From contig CACMQN010000002.1 of NCBI GenBank assembly GCA_902615855.1, positions 66,460 to 130,459 of the forward strand: a stretch of 64,000 nucleotides of DNA. Reading direction: 5' to 3'. Under the pieces are notes generated by a model that was not told where the DNA came from, ran no database searches, and worked only from the letters and a program-made list of their open reading frames with translations. This stretch comes from an uncultured Candidatus Actinomarina sp. (GTDB taxonomy: Bacteria; Actinomycetota; Acidimicrobiia; Actinomarinales; Actinomarinaceae). Made by a program: the position numbers and the translations under genes. This document shows, piece after piece, positions 1,606-10,240 of the stretch (position 1 is its first letter; each line of letters begins with the position of its first letter).

Positions 1606-2556
1606 TTAACCAGTTGACTCCACAGCCTCTGTAGTGACTTCTTCATCTGTTTCTAGAAGTCCACAGTCTTCGAGTACTTCGTCAGTGTTTCCGCCACCAA
1701 ATACAACTCTCTCAAAAACCACAACCGCGTAAATCTCATCTTCAGTAAGTTTTCCTGCAAATCCAGGCATTCCACCTATTGATACTTTATTCTCTGCTCC
1801 ATACGCCGGTCCAACTTCGGCCTGCCAACCTGCAGAGCCTAATTCAATCCACAATGCATGATCACTACAAGTTGGAAAAGTTGTATAAAGTTCTCCACCA
1901 GTAAAGGCAGGACCTACTCCTCCACCACCATTTACTCCATGACAACCAGCACATGCAGCAGCTCCAGAATAAACTTGTTGTCCAAGGGCAATATAATTTA
2001 TTGAGCTTGCAGATCCAACACCTTTTCCTTCAAATGCTGATCCATCACAGTTCACAGTTAATTGAGTTTTTCGATCAACATCTAAAATTCCACTCTCCCC
2101 ACATTCTTGTGTGGATGATGTATTGACTATCCCAATAACAATAAAAAGGGGAATAAGTACAAAGCTAAAATTTAGCCATCTCGGCAAAGATGTTTCAGCA
2201 TTTACCTTTATATCCAACGTCTTATTTGCGAAGGATACTTTTTGTATAATTTTTTTAATATTTGCTTGAGAAGATACTACAGATGAACTTTCCTTTTCAT
2301 CTTTTACAATTTCTGCAGACTCTTCTTTGGATTCTTCTATATCAGCTTTGTCTTCAACAGGTGGCGCCGGTTCTTCAGCAGGAGGTGCTTCTTCAGCAGG
2401 TTTTTCTGCAGAAGCTACACTCTCACCTCCAGCCCATGATTGTAAAACTTCATCAACTGTTCTTCCAGAAGCTTCAGCTCTAGCTTCAGCAGATCGTTGC
2501 ACCAACGACTCTGGTGCATTTAATAATTCAGCAACTTTACTTAAGAGTTCACTCAT
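1606..2556 (-). CDS. Membrane-anchored monoheme cytochrome c with the duplicated N-terminal module
   Basis: CAGCH heme motif, GGGGVGPAF, distal MPGF, one TM helix. N-terminus is nearly identical to that of the 2549..3361 gene. Confidence 0.85.
   Translation of the reverse strand: MSELLSKVAELLNAPESLVQRSAEARAEASGRTVDEVLQSWAGGESVASAEKPAEEAPPAEEPAPPVEDKADIEESKEESAEIVKDEKESSSVVSSQANIKKIIQKVSFANKTLDIKVNAETSLPRWLNFSFVLIPLFIVIGIVNTSSTQECGESGILDVDRKTQLTVNCDGSAFEGKGVGSASSINYIALGQQVYSGAAACAGCHGVNGGGGVGPAFTGGELYTTFPTCSDHALWIELGSAGWQAEVGPAYGAENKVSIGGMPGFAGKLTEDEIYAVVVFERVVFGGGNTDEVLEDCGLLETDEEVTTEAVESTG
2359..2556. repeat. 198-bp direct repeat, copy 1 (5' end of the cytochrome c gene)
   Basis: Matches 3164..3361 at offset 805 with two mismatches (2365/3170 and 2549/3354). 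Confidence 0.95.
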
Positions 2557-3361
2557 TTGTACTTCCTAAAGATAATAAATAAGTTATTAAATAATCTAAA
2601 TCTTGATTACTTAGGAAATTTACTGATGGATGAGGTATATCTTCCTTTACAGAAGATGGATCAATTAAATACTCTTTTAGCCAATCTGCATCGTTTGTTG
2701 GTTCTCTTGTTCCAAGAGTTGATAAATCGGGAGCTAACCTCAAAAGGCCTGTATTTTGAATGAGGTTTTTATTGGCAAATCTATTTTTTAATATTTTTCC
2801 ATTTTGTGAATCAGGTATGAGAATTCTTACATTCTGTGTATGACAGGACTGACAATTTAATTGGTTATAGACAATTGCTCCATTTAATATTTCTTCACTT
2901 ACCCGAACAGAATTATTTAATGATTGTAAGACCACCTCTTCACTTTGTTGTTTTGGTATTGAGAAAGCAAATAGGTATGTAAATATAACTACTCCAATCA
3001 CACCAGCAATAAAACCTAGAGAGCTTTCTTTCTTTATTTCAATGTTTTCTTCTTCAATTAAAACCTCTGTAGACATTTCAGAAATAGTTTCTTCAACTAC
3101 AATTGATAAATCTTCTGTTGATTCCTCTTCTTCCTCATCTGATGTAGTTACAGGTTCATCCGTAGGTGGTGCCGGTTCTTCAGCAGGAGGTGCTTCTTCA
3201 GCAGGTTTTTCTGCAGAAGCTACACTCTCACCTCCAGCCCATGATTGTAAAACTTCATCAACTGTTCTTCCAGAAGCTTCAGCTCTAGCTTCAGCAGATC
3301 GTTGCACCAACGACTCTGGTGCATTTAATAATTCAGCAACTTTACTTAAGAGTGCACTCAT
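2549..3361 (-). CDS. CcoO/FixO-like (cbb3 oxidase subunit II) cytochrome c, divergent
   Basis: GAIVY..CQSCHTQNVR...RLAPDLSTLG...DW...YLIDP resembles the CcoO pattern G..IY..GC..CHSQ.IR...R.GPDL..VG...DW...HL..P. Confidence 0.8.
   Translation of the reverse strand: MSALLSKVAELLNAPESLVQRSAEARAEASGRTVDEVLQSWAGGESVASAEKPAEEAPPAEEPAPPTDEPVTTSDEEEEESTEDLSIVVEETISEMSTEVLIEEENIEIKKESSLGFIAGVIGVVIFTYLFAFSIPKQQSEEVVLQSLNNSVRVSEEILNGAIVYNQLNCQSCHTQNVRILIPDSQNGKILKNRFANKNLIQNTGLLRLAPDLSTLGTREPTNDADWLKEYLIDPSSVKEDIPHPSVNFLSNQDLDYLITYLLSLGSTNE
3164..3361. repeat. 198-bp direct repeat, copy 2 (5' end of the CcoO-like gene)
   Basis: Matches 2359..2556 with two mismatches. Confidence 0.95.
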
Positions 3362-4761
3362 ACTGGAAGCTCCTCTTCAGTAAGTTCAATTGTTTCTGCT
3401 TCTGTAATTTCTCCATTTACTATCGCCTTGACGACTGAAATGAAAAACAACAGAAATGGCAGAAGTAATGTCAAAGATAAAAACATATTTAGCGTTAAAG
3501 GAGTACTGATTAGTGACCACAATAAACCGAACCCTTCACCATAGATTGTTGGGTTTCCTGCATTGGCACCAGCATTCCATGAGTAACCAGAAATAATTCC
3601 GATTAAAGCATTAGAAAATAATGTTAAAGACACCACAAGTTTTAATAGAAAACTAGTTAAAGATTCAAGCCTTGAAAATTTAACTTCTCTTCCAAAGATT
3701 TTAGGAATCAAATAATAAACAAATGAGATAGTAATTAATATTGCACTGAAAACATACCCATATCTAATTGCTATCTCAAAATTTGTAAGACTCAATATAG
3801 GAATGATATTTGAGAGCGAGGACACTATTTGAAAGATATTTGTTATAACAAATATTCCAAACGAGAAACTTATAAGACTATAAATAACTTTATTCTCGTC
3901 AATTCTCGTTGAAACCGTTCTGAAGAAATTTACAGCTATAGCAAGCACTGGGAGAGACAAACTTATAGACAAGTAAAGAGATATATTTTCTATCCAATTT
4001 GGCAATACAGAACCAAAGTAAAATTTAAAATTTGACCAAGGAATGAGAAACAAGAATCCCCAAAATCCAATAGATCCCAATGTTTTACTGTACAACGTAG
4101 CATTTATACCTTTTGTAATCATGAAATGAAGTAATGATAGAAATACGAACGAATATCCAACATATATATGTGTTGAAACATACATTGAATTAATGAAAAA
4201 ATTGTCGCTAAATACGACAAAATCAGCTCTATAAATTAGAAGTGATATCAAATAAAAAATACTTGCACCAAAAAGATACTGACTACTAACAAAGAGAGAA
4301 GCTTCTTTTTTGGCCAATATATTTAGAATAACGAGTCCAACAAAGGCAAAAAATATTAAGATTTTAAAAATTAATGTATAACTAGTGTTCCCAAAGAACA
4401 AAAAACTATCAGGAAATAATATTCCTAATAATAGATCGAGTGACTCCAATCCGATAACTCCCAATGCAGTTAGAAAAAAAATTGGGAATATTATTAATTT
4501 TCTTCCAAGTGTTTTTGGTAATAAGTAAACAGTCAAAAACACAATTAAAAATGAAAGCATCAGATTGTAAGTTATATGGTTATTTAGTTTTTCTAAATAT
4601 CCACTATTGAGAAAACTATTTTGAGGGAGTATGGCTGCAAAAATGAAATAAGCTTCTTTTGTTAATGCAACAGTTCCTAAAAGAAGGAAAAAAAGTGGAG
4701 TTAAAACAATAAAAAATTTTGAAAACGCTTGTTCATTTTTTGGAAAAATTTTTATTCTCAT
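3358..4761 (-). CDS. CcoN-like heme-copper oxidase subunit I homolog lacking the metal-ligand histidines
   Basis: About 12 TM helices. LYSKTLGSIGFWGFLFLIPW...LPNW and YYLIPKIFGRE align by eye with CcoN YS.RL...HFW.....W..PHH....LPDW and YYL.PKL.GRE. Lies directly upstream of the CcoO-like gene. Confidence 0.65.
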   Translation of the reverse strand: MRIKIFPKNEQAFSKFFIVLTPLFFLLLGTVALTKEAYFIFAAILPQNSFLNSGYLEKLNNHITYNLMLSFLIVFLTVYLLPKTLGRKLIIFPIFFLTALGVIGLESLDLLLGILFPDSFLFFGNTSYTLIFKILIFFAFVGLVILNILAKKEASLFVSSQYLFGASIFYLISLLIYRADFVVFSDNFFINSMYVSTHIYVGYSFVFLSLLHFMITKGINATLYSKTLGSIGFWGFLFLIPWSNFKFYFGSVLPNWIENISLYLSISLSLPVLAIAVNFFRTVSTRIDENKVIYSLISFSFGIFVITNIFQIVSSLSNIIPILSLTNFEIAIRYGYVFSAILITISFVYYLIPKIFGREVKFSRLESLTSFLLKLVVSLTLFSNALIGIISGYSWNAGANAGNPTIYGEGFGLLWSLISTPLTLNMFLSLTLLLPFLLFFISVVKAIVNGEITEAETIELTEEELPV

Positions 4762-4930
4762 TAATTTAAAAAGTAAGTACTCAATTTGACTTTACTATTA
4801 AACCATAGAAATTACTCCAATAAAATTAGTAATTTTTTGAAAAAGTTGGGTTATAAAATTTATAATATCTGGGTAATCCTTGATAGAATAGATATTGAAG
4901 GTTTTGAGTAAATAACGTGTTGAGGGAAAC

Positions 4931-5524
4931 TTGTTAAATTTTATATTTATTAACCGATACAAAATCGGAGTTGCTTTAATTTTTGCTGGAGTAGGTGGCA
5001 TAACAATTGGAGTAATTATTGCACATTTCGCTGGATTTCCAGAAGGCGAAGTAATCGATTATTTTAATTGGATGCCTAGGGGCTGGCTAATGCAAACCAT
5101 TGGACAACTCATTGCTTTTGGTGCAGGTCAATTTCTATTGATTGGAATGGCAATGCTTGCATGGCAAGATTCTGAATTAACTTGGGCTAGAGCAACATAT
5201 CTGGCATTTCTCAGTTGGATACAATTTGCACTTATATTTGGTGTATTACCTTCTGAGTGGTTAAACCTTTCTCAAGGACCTCTTGAATGGACAAACCAAA
5301 GAGAGTTTATCAACTTTCCTCCAATTTTATTTTTAGGTAACGAAATAGGAATGAGCCTCGGAGCTCTGAAAGACATTATTCAACTTGGTATATCAGGTGG
5401 AGCATTAGTGACAGCTTTTGTAGTAGGATATCTAATTCAAGATATCAACGAAGCAAAAGAAAGAGGAAAAACTAGAGTTTCTGATTACGGAAAACAAGTC
5501 GTGAAGGTAGGTGCTGATGGCTAA
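4931..5524 (+). CDS. Uncharacterised 4-TM membrane protein, first gene of the Rieske/cytochrome b operon
   Basis: Hydrophobic ORF with TTG start after GAGGG; overlaps the ferredoxin gene. Confidence 0.7.
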   Translation: MLNFIFINRYKIGVALIFAGVGGITIGVIIAHFAGFPEGEVIDYFNWMPRGWLMQTIGQLIAFGAGQFLLIGMAMLAWQDSELTWARATYLAFLSWIQFALIFGVLPSEWLNLSQGPLEWTNQREFINFPPILFLGNEIGMSLGALKDIIQLGISGGALVTAFVVGYLIQDINEAKERGKTRVSDYGKQVVKVGADG

Positions 5525-5966
5525 ATCAGAAGTACTTATTGAAATGCCTGAATTTGAAAAAAAATACAATTTAGCCATGGTCGAAGCCGAAAAGGTTTCT
5601 TCAAGGGTAAGGCCAAAACAGTTTTTGCATATTGATGAGGCAGAGTGCATTTTATGTGAAGGATGTGTAGATATCTGTCCATGGAAATGTATACATTACT
5701 TATCAACAGAAGCAATAGAAGACTCTATAAACGTTGAAGCTCCTAACATGGAAGATAATGAAACGGGATTCTTTGTTGTTGATGAAGAAGCTTGTACAAG
5801 ATGTGCATTATGTGTTGATAGGTGCCCAACAGGGGTTATATCGCTTGGTAAGTTTGCTGGATCATTAGCAGATGCGGCAATAAAGAATGGTGTTTATGAA
5901 TCTCCATGGGATGAAGACTCAGGAGAGAGAAGTGACCGTCATGGCTATATATATGGAAGACTTTAA
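5517..5966 (+). CDS. 2x[4Fe-4S] dicluster ferredoxin
   Basis: CILCEGCVDICP and CTRCALCVDRCP motifs. ATG 5517 preferred over GTG 5511. Confidence 0.9.
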   Translation: MAKSEVLIEMPEFEKKYNLAMVEAEKVSSRVRPKQFLHIDEAECILCEGCVDICPWKCIHYLSTEAIEDSINVEAPNMEDNETGFFVVDEEACTRCALCVDRCPTGVISLGKFAGSLADAAIKNGVYESPWDEDSGERSDRHGYIYGRL

Positions 5967-6745
5967 TGAAAAACGAAAAAATTAAATTTAGAGATCGATT
6001 AAAAGATATTAGTTCAGGTCTCGGAGAGTCTTTAAAAGAAAGTACGCTTTGGGGAAGTATTTTTAGACCAGGATCTCCATTTAGAAAAGGTTATTCAGAT
6101 AGTCCAAGAAATAGATCATATGTTGTAATGAATAACGTCTTGTATCATCTCCATCCAGTAAAAGTAAAAAGACATGGTGTCAGATTGTCATATACGCTTT
6201 GCTTGGGAGGATTAAGCTTCTTTACATTTATTGTTTTGACTATAACTGGTATTTGGTTGATGTTTTATTTTAGACCTACAGAAATGGCATATGTTGATAT
6301 TCAATCATTACAGACAAGTATTGCGTTTGGATCTCTAGTTAGAAATATGCACAGGTGGGCTGCGCACATTATGGTGTTAGTAGTGTTTCTTCACATGTCC
6401 CGAGTTTTTTATCATGGGGCGTACAAAGCACCTAGAGAGTTTAACTGGGTGATTGGAGTTATATTACTACTTTTAACACTCCTTCTTTCATTTACTGGTT
6501 ATCTACTTCCATGGGATCAGTTAGCTATTTGGGCTGTGACAGTGGGTGGAAATATGGCAGGTTATACTCCCGTTTTTGGTGCTCAAGTTAAGTTTGCGTT
6601 ATTTGCAGGACTAGAGGCTACTGAAGCAACACTTCTTCGATTTTATGTTTTACATGTTCTATTTTTTCCTTTCATCATTGTAATTTTTATGGCAATTCAT
6701 TTTTGGCGAGTAAGAAAGGATGGAGGAATCTCAGGTCCTCTATAG
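5966..6745 (+). CDS. qcrB: Cytochrome b N-terminal subunit (cytochrome b6-like, split)
   Basis: YTLCLGG, RNMHRWAAH, VFLHMSRVF, PREFNW, FTGYLLPWDQ, RFYVLHV, IHFWRVRKDGGISGPL C-terminus. Confidence 0.92.
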   Translation: MKNEKIKFRDRLKDISSGLGESLKESTLWGSIFRPGSPFRKGYSDSPRNRSYVVMNNVLYHLHPVKVKRHGVRLSYTLCLGGLSFFTFIVLTITGIWLMFYFRPTEMAYVDIQSLQTSIAFGSLVRNMHRWAAHIMVLVVFLHMSRVFYHGAYKAPREFNWVIGVILLLLTLLLSFTGYLLPWDQLAIWAVTVGGNMAGYTPVFGAQVKFALFAGLEATEATLLRFYVLHVLFFPFIIVIFMAIHFWRVRKDGGISGPL

Positions 6746-6752
6746 ACATACT

Positions 6753-7577
6753 ATGGTTGATATTCCAGAACATTTATTATTAAAAACTGCTGAAGCAAGA
6801 GCCAAGGCCTTAGGTATTTCAGTTGAACAAGCACTGGCAGAAATGAGAGGTGAAGCTGAGCCTACCAAAATTGAGAAAGAACCAGATGTTATTGAAGTTA
6901 CTCAAATTGAAGTAGAAGTCAAAGAAACACCGGCACCAGCAGCTGAAGTCAAAGAAACACCGGCACCAGCAGCTGTAGTAAAAGAAGCACCGGCTCCTGC
7001 ACCTGAAAAATCAAACGGACAAGTACCTACTGAAGTAGATTTTGCACCTGAGACAAAAGTAACACAAAGGTTGCTTACGGTCGTCAAAGCAAAGCCAATA
7101 CAGAAACCAACTTCTGAACCAGTTGATAAAGTAAACACATGGCCTCATTTAATGTTGCCAGAGTTTATTTCATTAATGGCAATGACAGCATTTTTGATTT
7201 TTATAAGTGCAATTTTGCAAGCTCCTTTATTAGAAGAAGCAAATCCAAACATTACACCAAACCCTGCAAAAGCACCATGGTACTTTTTAGGACTACAAGA
7301 ATTACTTTCCTATTGGGATCCACAGATCGCAGGTGTGATGATACCTCTTCTAATTGGTGTTGCAGCATTTATGGCAATTCCATATATTGATCGAAATAAA
7401 GAAAATAAACCTTCAAAAAGAAAATATGCAATAATGTTGTGGACCTTTTTTCTGGCAGGTGCTGGAACTTTAAGTCTTATCGGTATTTTATTTAGAGGCC
7501 CAGGTTGGAACTGGACGTATCCATGGATTGATGGTGTATGGTTCGATGACTTACTTGACTGGGTCCATTTCGAATGA
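6753..7577 (+). CDS. Rieske/cytochrome b complex subunit IV (PetD-like) with N-terminal extension
   Basis: WPHL...PLLEEANPNITPNPAKAPWYFLGLQELL (PEWY-equivalent) and PYIDR. ATG 6753 follows the cytochrome b stop. Confidence 0.88.
   Translation: MVDIPEHLLLKTAEARAKALGISVEQALAEMRGEAEPTKIEKEPDVIEVTQIEVEVKETPAPAAEVKETPAPAAVVKEAPAPAPEKSNGQVPTEVDFAPETKVTQRLLTVVKAKPIQKPTSEPVDKVNTWPHLMLPEFISLMAMTAFLIFISAILQAPLLEEANPNITPNPAKAPWYFLGLQELLSYWDPQIAGVMIPLLIGVAAFMAIPYIDRNKENKPSKRKYAIMLWTFFLAGAGTLSLIGILFRGPGWNWTYPWIDGVWFDDLLDWVHFE
6915..7004 (+). repeat. 30-bp in-frame tandem repeat (EVKETPAPAA x2 plus a degenerate third unit)
   Basis: gaagtcaaagaaacaccggcaccagcagct occurs exactly twice, followed by a diverged copy. 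Confidence 0.9.
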
Positions 7578-8452
7578 CTCTTGTTGAGCTTTCATTTATT
7601 GCAATTGCATTTATTGGCGTATTTGGTGTGATTGGAATTGCAGCTGTAGTAACTGGAAGAACCCCAAAAGCTGTAACAAAAAGATTAAATTGGAAAAAGA
7701 ATTTAGATAAAAAAGCTTTAAAAGTTGATAAATCTCAAACAAATTTTTTAGCTCCAGATGAACCAGATTTTGAAGAAGAAAACGTATCTGAAGATAATGA
7801 ACAAGATGAAGAAGAAATTCAAACCGATGGATCCATTGCAATAAAAGAAGAAATAATTTATGAAGAAATTTCAGAAGAAGAAGCTGGAATGACTCGTAGA
7901 CAATTTTTGGGTAAAGCCCTTGGAATCACGTTTGGAGCATTTGCTGGTATCCAATTAATTTCTTGGCTTGGATTCTTTTATCCAAAAGTTTCCGGAGGTT
8001 TTGGATCTAAAATAGATGCTGGAAGAGTTGATGACCTTAAAGACCAAATTTTCCAATCAGACGGTTCAGTTATACCTGCATTCATTCCAGAAGCAAGAGC
8101 TTATGTTTTACCATTTGATGACAATGGTAACTCTCAGTTTTCTGATAGTGGAACTATTGCAGACGGTTTAGTTGCTGTTTATCAACGATGCGTTCATTTA
8201 GGTTGTCGTGTTCCATGGTGCAACACCTCTCAAGGATTTGAATGTCCATGTCATGGTTCAAAATACAACATGGTTGGTGAGTATTACGCAGGTCCTGCTC
8301 CAAGGAACTTAGATAGGTTTATTGTAAGTGTTTCAGGAGGAAAATTAATTATCGACACAGGATCAGTTATAGAATCACCTCGAGCTGATGGTATGTCTGT
8401 GAAATATCCACAAGGTCTTTCATGTATTACAATCGCTGAGACTGAGGAATAA
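7574..8452 (+). CDS. qcrA: Rieske [2Fe-2S] subunit
   Basis: CVHLGC and CPCHGSKY boxes, GPAPRNL, internal TRRQFL twin-arginine motif. Confidence 0.93.
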   Translation: MTLVELSFIAIAFIGVFGVIGIAAVVTGRTPKAVTKRLNWKKNLDKKALKVDKSQTNFLAPDEPDFEEENVSEDNEQDEEEIQTDGSIAIKEEIIYEEISEEEAGMTRRQFLGKALGITFGAFAGIQLISWLGFFYPKVSGGFGSKIDAGRVDDLKDQIFQSDGSVIPAFIPEARAYVLPFDDNGNSQFSDSGTIADGLVAVYQRCVHLGCRVPWCNTSQGFECPCHGSKYNMVGEYYAGPAPRNLDRFIVSVSGGKLIIDTGSVIESPRADGMSVKYPQGLSCITIAETEE

Positions 8453-8454
8453 AT

Positions 8455-9879
8455 ATGAACAGCTCGTTTTTCATAACATTAATCGCCTTAGCAGTAGTTG
8501 GTGCAATTGCTTATTTTTCTGCAGTTGGTTTCCGTGGTGCAGGAAAAATCAAAAAAGTACCTAGAAATTTACAAAAATATCTTCCAGATGATGAATTAGA
8601 AACTACTCATCTTGATAAAACATTATCAATAGCAGTTGTGCTAGCTTCGTTACTTACAATTATGATTCCACTTTATTATCTCGGCGAACCAGCTAGACAA
8701 GAAAGTTTTGTAGAAGAGTTTGATGACGTTTCAGTTGAAAGAGGGCACCATCTTTACGAAGAGTTTGGGTGCGGAAACTGCCATGGAGTAGATGGAAGTG
8801 GTGGAGCTGCTTCATATGTTGAAAAAAGAAGTGGTGTAAGTGTTACATGGTCAGCCCCTGCAATAAACAATGTGTTTTATAGATATGATGATGAAGAAGT
8901 TAGGTATTGGCTAATATACGGTAGAGCAAACTCACCTATGCCAGCTTGGGGTCTAAAAGGCGGAGGCCCAATGAACGATGGACAGCTTGACGACTTGATA
9001 GAGTACTTGCATTATTTTCAAATTCCACAAAATGAAGAACTTCAACAAATTGAACAAAATATAAACTCATCTTTGCTACGAATTGAAAATTCTGATTTAC
9101 AGGTTGAAAGTGAAATTGAAAAACAAAATGACCTTATCAATGACATTAAGGCAGCTCCAGAAAGATTACCCGTAGCAATTGAAGCCGTTGAAATTGTATC
9201 TGCGATACTAGCAAGGCAGAATGGAATCGATACTGATGAAGACGGGCTTTTTGATTCAGTAGAAACAGATATATCAGCTTATAGTGAAAGTGTTGCAGAT
9301 GTTTTGGGTACTGCAATTTTAAATCTAAATCCAGATGAAGAAGAATCAACTCCAGGAAGAAAAGACGCATCAGTTGTTAGGGGATACCTTTCTGATCTTG
9401 AAACGAGTGTTATTAATTTAGGAATCCTTACTGATGGCTATGACAAATTTATGGATGAAGCTGAAAAAGGTTTAGCATTTCTTGAAAATGCCTATGAACA
9501 AAAATTATGGCTTATTGATTTCCAAAACATTGCTGATTCAACCTTTGATGGAGACTATGATAAAGCAACAAGAGCAGTAGGAATATTTAATGCATATTGT
9601 GCGAGGTGTCACACTGCTGGTTATTCTGCAGGAGCTGCATATACAAAAATCATTGGTTCTGGAGGCTTGGGGCCTGCATTAAAAGGTGGACGAGTAAATA
9701 TTCAATTTAAAGAGAGAGCCGACTTTGTTGATTTTATTATTAACGGTTCTGTCAATGGTAAAGGCTATGGAGTCAATGGAGTCGGTGGAGGAAAAATGCC
9801 AGGATTTGGTGCGGTACTTCCACAGTCAGATATAGAATTGGTTATAGATTATTTGAGAGGAATGACACCTGATGCGTGA
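8455..9879 (+). CDS. Membrane-anchored diheme cytochrome c
   Basis: CGNCH...MPAW and CARCH...MPGF; two N-terminal TM helices. Confidence 0.88.
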   Translation: MNSSFFITLIALAVVGAIAYFSAVGFRGAGKIKKVPRNLQKYLPDDELETTHLDKTLSIAVVLASLLTIMIPLYYLGEPARQESFVEEFDDVSVERGHHLYEEFGCGNCHGVDGSGGAASYVEKRSGVSVTWSAPAINNVFYRYDDEEVRYWLIYGRANSPMPAWGLKGGGPMNDGQLDDLIEYLHYFQIPQNEELQQIEQNINSSLLRIENSDLQVESEIEKQNDLINDIKAAPERLPVAIEAVEIVSAILARQNGIDTDEDGLFDSVETDISAYSESVADVLGTAILNLNPDEEESTPGRKDASVVRGYLSDLETSVINLGILTDGYDKFMDEAEKGLAFLENAYEQKLWLIDFQNIADSTFDGDYDKATRAVGIFNAYCARCHTAGYSAGAAYTKIIGSGGLGPALKGGRVNIQFKERADFVDFIINGSVNGKGYGVNGVGGGKMPGFGAVLPQSDIELVIDYLRGMTPDA

Positions 9880-10240
9880 AATAATGAGAACCCTTTTGTC
9901 ATCTAATTTGACATTTACTGGAATTTTCCTTTTTGTTTTTTTTGTTCTCTCATTTTTTGGATCAACTTTTATTTTGAACGCAACAAATTTAGGTAGAAGA
10001 CTTGGCTTCCTTGTTGTTGGAGCCGCAACTTTTGGATGGCTAGTTATTAATTCTTTTCTGTTTATACTTTATGCTCCAAGGGGTCCAGCGCCATCCTCAA
10101 TAGATGGTCTAAATGCTCTAGAAATCAGAATTATTCCAATAACTTATTTTGCTGGATCTTTAATACTTTTTATTATGTTCATGCTTGCTTTAAATAGATA
10201 CGAACAAGAAGAAAAAAACACAGAAGAAACAAATAGTTAA
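9872..10240 (+). CDS. Small 3-TM membrane protein, last gene of the operon
   Basis: Hydrophobic ORF overlapping the cytochrome c stop. Confidence 0.7.
   Translation: MREIMRTLLSSNLTFTGIFLFVFFVLSFFGSTFILNATNLGRRLGFLVVGAATFGWLVINSFLFILYAPRGPAPSSIDGLNALEIRIIPITYFAGSLILFIMFMLALNRYEQEEKNTEETNS

Follow-up and report, generated by a model that had tools for sequence, protein, structure and literature searches.

A CcoN homolog without its metal ligands, retained beside a c-type cytochrome in Candidatus Actinomarina

What is subunit I of a heme-copper oxidase for once the residues that hold its metals have gone? The question is raised by a gene in a stretch of 64,000 nucleotides from an uncultured Candidatus Actinomarina (contig CACMQN010000002.1; this whole stretch is the window, and all coordinates are in its numbering), which belongs to a genome of 1.07 Mb and 82.8% completeness. 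The six metal-binding histidines of subunit I are regarded as the invariant feature that defines the heme-copper superfamily. The gene at 3358-4761, a single open frame on the reverse strand, encodes a 467-residue relative of CcoN, subunit I of the cbb3 oxidases, with histidine at positions 62, 198, and 212 only and no cysteine. An earlier note, made from the sequence alone, had counted the same three histidines and proposed a retained pseudo-enzyme. The stop codon overlaps the start codon of a CcoO-like gene (ATGA at 3358-3361), which in turn overlaps a second cytochrome c gene to form a three-gene unit; the frame is full-length, uninterrupted, and coupled to the CcoO-like gene, as that note described it.

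The protein is a CcoN homolog. It matches the Pfam COX1 profile with an E value of 5e-11, above the cut-off, and TIGR00780 (ccoN) with an E value of 5e-11, in the latter case at 42 bits and thus below the equivalog cut-off of 583. A phmmer search found 3MK7 chain A with an E value of 1.3e-10, all five matches among solved structures being cbb3-type subunits I, and hhalign gave a probability of 99.7% against an intact CcoN. The AlphaFold model (122-row alignment; predicted local distance difference test score (pLDDT) 92.3, predicted template modeling score (pTM) 0.93) was aligned by Foldseek to CcoN structures with template modeling (TM) scores of 0.84-0.85, and by VIA to 3MK7 with a Z score of 42.3 and a root-mean-square deviation (RMSD) of 2.6 Å for 445 residues. 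In the VIA ranking, CcoN came first, followed by cNOR, with Z scores of 36-37, and by A-family subunits, none of which exceeded 34. CcoN proteins are the nearest relatives in the profiles, in phmmer, in both structure searches, and in trees, and the ESM Atlas returned solely clusters labelled COX1. Homology to COX1/CcoN is not due to chance, and the predicted 12-helix subunit I fold, with the COX1 match, places the protein in the heme-copper oxidoreductase superfamily by fold and ancestry. The homology claimed in the earlier note is borne out by both the profile match and the structural match to cbb3 CcoN.

We mapped the ligands in a MAFFT alignment of 139 sequences that included intact CcoN proteins, using P. 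stutzeri numbering, which was partly counted off the phmmer alignment to 3MK7 and for the rest is presumed. The positions of H60, H207, H257, H258, H345, and H347 are occupied by N60, S196, K246, F247, I332, and Y334, and among 120 close homologs these positions carry histidine 2, 0, 0, 0, 0, and 1 times, respectively. Both ligands of the low-spin heme b (H60 and H347) are thus missing; the position of the heme b3 ligand H345 is Ile or Val in all 120 homologs; and at most one of the CuB trio (H207, H257, and H258) is left, K246 and F247 being certain. The position of the cross-linked tyrosine Y251 is taken by I240 and is Leu, Met, Ile, or Phe in all 120; Y200 presumably lies at the tyrosine position of the A family, but without a copper site. 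The loop with E122 and E125, which we take to be the calcium loop, is deleted, and the residues that we take to form the K-channel are lost or variable: H243 has become G232, Y251 I240, Y317 F304, and Y223 H212, a position with His in 63, Phe in 32, and Tyr in 25 of the 120 homologs.

One of these assignments depends on the register of helix VI. Both phmmer and hhalign open two-residue gaps there, which places H198, kept in 116 of the 120 homologs, on the CuB ligand H207, whereas without gaps S196 takes that position. We consider the gap-free register likely to be right, because both flanking anchors fit (Y194 on Y205 and H212 on Y223) and the modeled helix 184-218 is unbroken. As judged from the alignments, at least five of the six ligands are lost in either register and at most one remains, and a single remaining ligand could not form any described heme-copper site. 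The registers that the earlier note had drawn by eye for the CuB, heme, and helix VI sites match the MAFFT alignment (S196, K246/F247, and I332/Y334), to which N60 is now added; its claim of ligand loss stands for at least five of the six, while the placement of H198 on H207 had escaped it.

Among 47 full-length Acidimicrobiia sequences, 46 have no histidine at the six positions and one has a single one. The residues conserved across the clade are mostly Gly, Pro, Trp, and loop Arg and include no replacement ligand set; H62 (8 of 120 close homologs) and H212 (63 of 120) are not conserved. Heme ligands combined with a nonheme metal site of His and Glu, Asp, or Asn, by which the available part of PMC11214002 defines the nitric oxide (NO) reductases (cNOR, qNOR, eNOR, sNOR, gNOR, nNOR, bNOR, and NOD), are absent as well. 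With no more than one metal-binding histidine left, the protein is predicted to be cofactor-free, holding neither heme nor copper, and it would almost certainly be incapable of reducing O2 or NO. A new histidine-based site was considered and rejected: the candidate columns, at CcoN positions 16, 364, and 384, are patchy and absent from the genus, and column 384 is ancestral.

Could the emptied cavity hold something else? In the close homologs S196 (120/120), H198 (116/120), Y200 (120/120), and K246 (119/120) are nearly invariant, and we take residues 196-200 to correspond to HPEVY, a segment of the active-site lining. A noncanonical ligand, either a quinone or a metal or heme bound through His198, Tyr200, Lys246, or Tyr334, would make the CcoN/CcoO-like pair a low-potential quinol:cytochrome c module; the partner heme has His in place of Met (see below), and His/Lys heme ligation exists in some eNORs according to the available part of PMC11214002. 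Outside the genus, however, S196, H198, Y200, K246, and Y334 are all unconserved, position 334 is Phe in 21 of the 120 homologs, and about a quarter of the alignment columns are invariant within the genus anyway. We regard such a ligand as unlikely. Four buried charged residues, E106, K133, K246, and E258, are likewise near-invariant in the genus and would suit a conduit for protons, ions, or lipids through the emptied pores, but the K-channel positions (G232, I240, F304, and H212) are lost or variable, and the clade alignment contains no charged membrane residue that is conserved class-wide, which makes a conduit improbable.

A further possibility is that the gene is a decaying remnant without function, since roughly two thirds of the genomes in the class sample described below lack it, two genomes (G009 and G282) have it frameshifted, and it evolves faster than the neighboring genes. 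We therefore consider its constraint. The ratio of nonsynonymous to synonymous substitution rates (dN/dS), calculated by the Nei-Gojobori method for the three nearest genomes (dS 0.09-0.17, pairs beyond these being saturated), is 0.100, 0.112, and 0.126. Values are lower for the neighbors, at 0 for the gene of a 197-residue membrane protein (zero replacements versus three close genomes) and 0.012-0.036 for a ferredoxin gene, so that the constraint is real but looser than in neighboring genes. Among 30 same-genus genomes with loci, only G009 has a broken frame; the other 29 frames are open (six of them cut by a contig end). In two draws of other same-genus genomes, which are incomplete assemblies, the gene was detected in 21 of 24 and 23 of 25, respectively. 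Protein length is 461-467 residues in 118 of the 120 homologs listed, down to 51% identity, and the ligand loss appears to be older than many families. The picture expected of a pseudogene, with broken frames and a dN/dS near 1, is not seen. The gene is under purifying selection, and decay is refuted at the genus level by dN/dS unless the protein is never translated; a functionless remnant deserves next to no credence. Thus the earlier description of a retained pseudo-enzyme rather than a decaying gene holds up, given the dN/dS of 0.10-0.13, the open frames, conservation across the class, and a fixed gene context; frequent frameshifts among orthologs, which would have spoken against it, were not found. 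In metatranscriptome contigs from four studies the gene is whole in one run and partial in three, but strand and level are unreadable and the contigs may derive from DNA, so they were not used as evidence of expression. Taken together, the sequences describe a real, selected, and putatively cofactor-free variant of the C-family oxidases that would belong to no catalytic family.

What has been retained with it is a cytochrome. The CcoO-like protein matches FixO with an E value of 1e-6, just under the cut-off, and has the CcoO core motif by alignment; it is a monoheme partner like CcoO, with His rather than Met as the distal ligand. In 70 aligned CcoO-like domains, all selected for CxxCH, the distal residue is Met in 6/6 intact references, in 25 members of five families (f6, f9, f10, f12, and f34, in our labels), and in one member of f15; it is His in 22/22 same-genus sequences, 12/12 of f2 (where the register is less sure), and three others, and Gln in one. 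This swap, at residue 244 of the protein encoded at 2549-3361, is common to f2, f23, and f40, which also encode the CcoO-like protein separately, unfused. As an exchange between two residues that both ligate heme, it suggests selection on a working partner heme, which, as a bis-His heme, would by analogy probably have a lower potential; His/Met hemes usually lie higher than bis-His hemes (available part of 10.64898/2026.01.22.701106).

We read the gene context of 50 loci, 49 of which belong to the CcoN-like family. In these 49, a CcoO-like domain is fused to the CcoN-like protein (24 loci), encoded by the next gene (23) or later in the operon (1), or lies past the contig end (1). A natural ligand-less CcoN-CcoO fusion of 640 residues is predicted to fold as one body (pTM 0.92), which is consistent with cbb3-like packing, although AlphaFold knows cbb3 structures and the result may reflect that likeness. 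The CcoN-like protein very probably docks onto its CcoO-like partner in the manner of CcoN. The ligand-less CcoN of family f9 and that of P0207 are fused to a cupredoxin domain instead of a CcoO-like domain; at L018:8090-10219 and in P0207 this fusion lies directly upstream of caa3 genes. A scan of genome contigs with P0207 matched the cupredoxin tail alone and brought no further family members to light.

The unit lies opposite or near a complex III (cytochrome b) operon in 48 of the 49 family loci. Where the contig reaches, the order of this operon is 197-residue membrane protein, 2[4Fe-4S] ferredoxin, short cytochrome b, subunit IV, Rieske protein, diheme cytochrome c, and small membrane protein. 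With CLGG in its cytochrome b and APWY in subunit IV, the operon belongs by motif to the APWY clade of split cytochrome b complexes, in which a CxGG motif marks a putative heme ci (available part of PMC4122944). Relatives without the CcoN-like family have the same operon in 20/20 loci, with the second cytochrome directly opposite in 15 of these 20; this cytochrome thus also occurs where the CcoN/CcoO-like pair is lacking. None of ccoQ, ccoG, ccoH, ccoI, and ccoS is among the conserved neighbors of the family loci. The idea that carriers are the genomes without an actinobacterial QcrB was ruled out, as the short cytochrome b is present in most of the class, whether or not the CcoN/CcoO-like pair accompanies it.

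Two further explanations draw on this context. In deeper-branching lineages, including f6, f9, and several loci of other classes, the CcoN-like gene directly follows ccsB-ccsA, and in f9 it precedes caa3 genes, as might be expected of a factor for the maturation or insertion of c-type cytochromes or caa3 rather than for electron transfer. Yet caa3 genes fill the same slot beside ccsB-ccsA in many other Actinomycetota, so that the slot marks a terminal-oxidase site; moreover, the protein has no conserved His or Cys for handling heme, and relatives produce the same cytochromes without it. We hold an assembly factor to be quite improbable. The other explanation is modeled on redox signaling from cbb3 oxidase to PrrBA in Rhodobacter: the partner heme would report the state of the chain through the membrane subunit to a regulator. 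A heme partner retained in a dispensable add-on would fit a sensor, but no regulator was seen among the conserved neighbors, for which no systematic regulator search was made, and retention in a streamlined 1.07-Mb genome favors a core role. A sensor deserves as little credit as an assembly factor.

These considerations lead us to lean toward a scaffold role: without cofactors of its own, the protein would support a c-type cytochrome that operates between complex III and aa3. The CcoN-like protein would serve as the membrane scaffold of the CcoO-like cytochrome c, and the heme of the latter would relay electrons from the Rieske/cytochrome b complex toward a separate caa3 oxidase. The caa3 operon of this genome encodes a subunit I with all six histidines and GHPEVY in place, and the A-family CtaD profile matched 77/79 and 37/37 carrier genomes (114/116 in all), ligands being checked in the study genome only. 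An ancestral C-family oxidase in the respiratory cluster probably lost its catalytic role once an aa3 oxidase did the job, its cytochrome subunit by then being a useful anchored carrier that still needed a partner for folding or positioning. That the pair works in the path from complex III to aa3 is, on balance, what we would expect.

Several points weigh against this proposal. The pair is a dispensable add-on, since the same complex III operates in relatives that lack it. The CcoO-like protein has a predicted membrane anchor of its own, which leaves the need for a 12-helix partner unexplained, and a Met-to-His swap usually lowers the heme potential and so fits a downhill step to aa3 less well. 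The near invariance of S196, H198, Y200, and K246 in the genus is not required of a pure scaffold. Two carriers, G147 (95% complete) and G291 (96%), have no A-family and no bd oxidase that we could find. Nor does the co-occurrence with aa3 discriminate, since the carriers are kin and the counts come from carriers alone; it is coexistence, not correlation. Among the scaffold, channel, and sensor uses that the earlier note had offered, the scaffold is the best supported, and the channel is weak, the proton-channel residues not being conserved.

How far does the loss of ligands reach? A profile search of 300 Acidimicrobiia genomes matched 104, about a third, and the matches cluster by family (39/40, 19/22, and 7/7 in some; 0/34 and 0/18 in others); one of them (G243) is a different oxidase with intact ligands, and a few others are fragments. 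A phylum sample added 20 strong or middling loci, comprising 14 degenerate ones from four families, 5 C-family oxidases intact at all six histidines, and 1 of a different type; six of the 14 degenerate loci retain one or two heme-b histidines. The family also reaches actinobacterial classes beyond Acidimicrobiia. Partial states, in which only heme-b or some CuB histidines are kept, occur at L237, L239, L240, L243, L244, L246, P0153, P0179, P0183, P0198, and P0262 and form a graded series of ligand loss. Intact C-family oxidases of other actinobacterial classes (L228, L230, L232, and L234) have a CcoO partner with five CxxCH motifs. Divergent intact six-His C-family oxidases lie on Sinorhizobium, Cupriavidus, Ralstonia, and Paraburkholderia replicons (L094-L096 and L099), one of them annotated as a hypothetical protein. 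One assembly (G051) holds the whole locus twice (L091 and L092), by duplication or through a mixed bin.

A search of representative sequences, of which the best 150 of 313 matches were used, contained other degenerate proteins, nested among intact ones in FastTree trees. A single clade of all ligand-less sequences was rejected by the approximately unbiased (AU) test (p-AU 0.00035; IQ-TREE, 30 chosen rows, unrooted tree with the six ligand columns kept in). A metagenome scan with one of these other degenerate proteins gave 80 loci with 79 scored sequences: 51 with six histidines, 4 truncated ones with four or five, and 24 with two or fewer. Most of the longer loci are alternative complex III (ACIII)-ccoN-ccoO-ccoP operons (one locus confirmed by Pfam), and aa3 genes follow directly downstream in 5/7 degenerate versus 9/31 intact loci with at least 3 kb of downstream DNA, a difference for which no statistic is claimed, as the degenerate loci are one clade. 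The ligands therefore appear to have been lost independently in the second lineage, within ACIII-cbb3-aa3 operons and beside intact sisters.

Across the class, the CcoO-like protein, the second cytochrome, and subunit IV all start with a module of about 45 residues, which some members carry in several tandem copies. The genome encodes it in five proteins: both cytochromes, subunit IV, the alpha subunit of a 2-oxoacid:ferredoxin oxidoreductase (KorA-like), and a membrane protein after ctaG in the caa3 operon. A module-bearing protein like the last of these lies near caa3 genes in two other genomes, and relatives without the CcoN-like gene have a shorter form. The module has no Pfam or PDB match; a likeness to ribbon-helix-helix proteins, seen by eye only, is unsupported and was set aside. 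It is conceivable, though doubtful, that a respiratory super-assembly not described so far is built around the dead oxidase and consists of 2-oxoacid:ferredoxin oxidoreductase, a ferredoxin-fed heme-ci Rieske/cytochrome b complex, the CcoN/CcoO-like pair, the second cytochrome, and caa3, all tethered by the module; if so, the heme-copper fold would have been re-used at least twice as a cofactor-free platform. A complex prediction for the modules of the CcoO-like protein and subunit IV scored 0.00, which speaks neither for nor against an interaction. The first 198 nucleotides of the two cytochrome genes (2359-2556 and 3164-3361) differ at 2 positions, and such copies are more alike within most genomes than across genomes, which suggests gene conversion; several assemblies break at the repeat.

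Table 1. Features of the locus, with positions in the window unless a locus label is given
Feature	Position	Strand	Basis
CcoN-like 12-helix membrane protein, 467 aa, predicted to lack the heme b, heme b3, and CuB ligands	3358..4761	-	profiles, alignment, structure model
N60, position of low-spin heme ligand H60	4582..4584	-	alignment
S196-T197-H198; S196 at CuB ligand H207 (gap-free register), H198 at H207 only in gapped register	4168..4176	-	alignments
I240 (position of cross-link Tyr251), K246 and F247 (CuB ligands H257, H258)	4021..4044	-	alignments
I332 (heme b3 ligand H345), Y334 (heme b ligand H347)	3760..3768	-	alignments
CcoO-like monoheme cytochrome c, 270 aa, one predicted membrane anchor, CQSCH 170-174, His244 at distal Met position of CcoO	2549..3361	-	profiles, motif alignment
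Second membrane-anchored monoheme cytochrome c, 316 aa, CAGCH, distal Met motif, third gene of unit	1606..2556	-	profile, motifs
N-terminal module (~45 aa) of CcoO-like protein, without library match	3224..3361	-	comparison
Module (~45 aa) on second cytochrome	2419..2556	-	comparison
Related module, likely N-terminus of cytochrome b subunit IV	6753..6872	+	comparison
Further module loci	L140:10164-11261; L141:3-2537		module comparison
Divergent intergenic region separating both units	4762..4930	.	ORF layout
197-aa membrane protein, no known family, complex III operon gene 1	4931..5524	+	no library family
2[4Fe-4S] ferredoxin	5511..5966	+	Pfam
Short (b6-type) cytochrome b, CLGG heme-ci motif at 79	5966..6745	+	profiles, motif
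Cytochrome b subunit IV, APWY Qo motif	6720..7577	+	profile, motif
Rieske protein	7574..8452	+	profiles
Diheme cytochrome c	8455..9879	+	profile, motifs
122-aa membrane protein, conserved last gene of complex III operon	9872..10240	+	gene context

The complex III operon of the window (4931-10240) contains, besides its ferredoxin gene, two genes for membrane proteins without an assigned family (Table 1). In the intergenic region 4762-4930, promoter-like sites occur at chance level (9 found against 12.9 expected over the region scanned). An NHL/WD40-like repeat protein is encoded at 1-1566 and converges on the cytochrome genes; a contig from an RNA run (X1) departs from the window at 1606, and the neighbor of the cytochrome genes may thus vary among strains.

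Family members carry the database label "cbb3-type cytochrome c oxidase subunit I", and this wrongly suggests that abundant bacteria of the sea and soil respire O2 with high affinity. We found no description of ligand-less CcoN, be it this family or the ACIII-linked form, in the literature searched, which did not extend to subscription papers, older cbb3 phylogenies, and preprint supplements. The available parts of PMC12008989, PMC13608581, PMC3903129, PMC8407424, PMC10205998, and PMC10156729 do not mention the family, and the curated census of PMC11214002, as far as covered, counts no ligand-less CcoN: the families defined in its available part retain their heme ligands, and the single oxidase given in one Actinomarina row is of the A family. 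A family that lacks the six histidines and yet is widespread and under selection would mean that the heme-copper fold has a noncatalytic use that arose at least twice, and the natural series of ligand loss offers a way to ask how subunit I folds without cofactors.

Compared with known systems, the unit is closest to the cbb3 oxidases (3MK7/5DJQ, 8SMR, 6XKW, and 9G83), with which it shares the 12-helix fold (Z 40-42, RMSD 2.5-3.0 Å), the ccoN-ccoO-cytochrome c gene order, CcoN-CcoO fusions, and a monoheme partner with the CcoO core motif. Unlike them, it lacks the histidine set, the cross-linked tyrosine, the calcium-loop Glu, and the K-channel; its partner has His for the distal Met, and its third gene encodes a monoheme cytochrome that is also found without the pair. 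The cNOR complexes of NorB and NorC (3O0R and 4XYD) resemble it in fold (Z 36-37) and in having a cytochrome c partner, and cNOR, eNOR, sNOR, gNOR, nNOR, NOD, and N2O-red share with it the absence of an active-site tyrosine at the C-family position. In the available part of PMC11214002, however, these families keep their heme ligands and a metal site, and gNOR is presented as the first family in which so much as a single histidine of the active site is replaced, whereas the CcoN-like protein has lost five or six ligands and has no conserved Glu ligand. The APWY-clade complexes differ in that the available part of PMC4122944 mentions neither a CcoN-like neighbor nor a shared N-terminal module. 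The nearest functional parallel may be the ligand-less CcoN of the ACIII-ccoNOP-aa3 operons, one member of which is named Opitutales: there, too, a dead subunit I with retained cytochromes stands between a complex III-type enzyme and aa3. It differs in its separate origin, in having intact sisters that are 40-50% identical, and in its partner complex, which is ACIII rather than a Rieske/cytochrome b complex.

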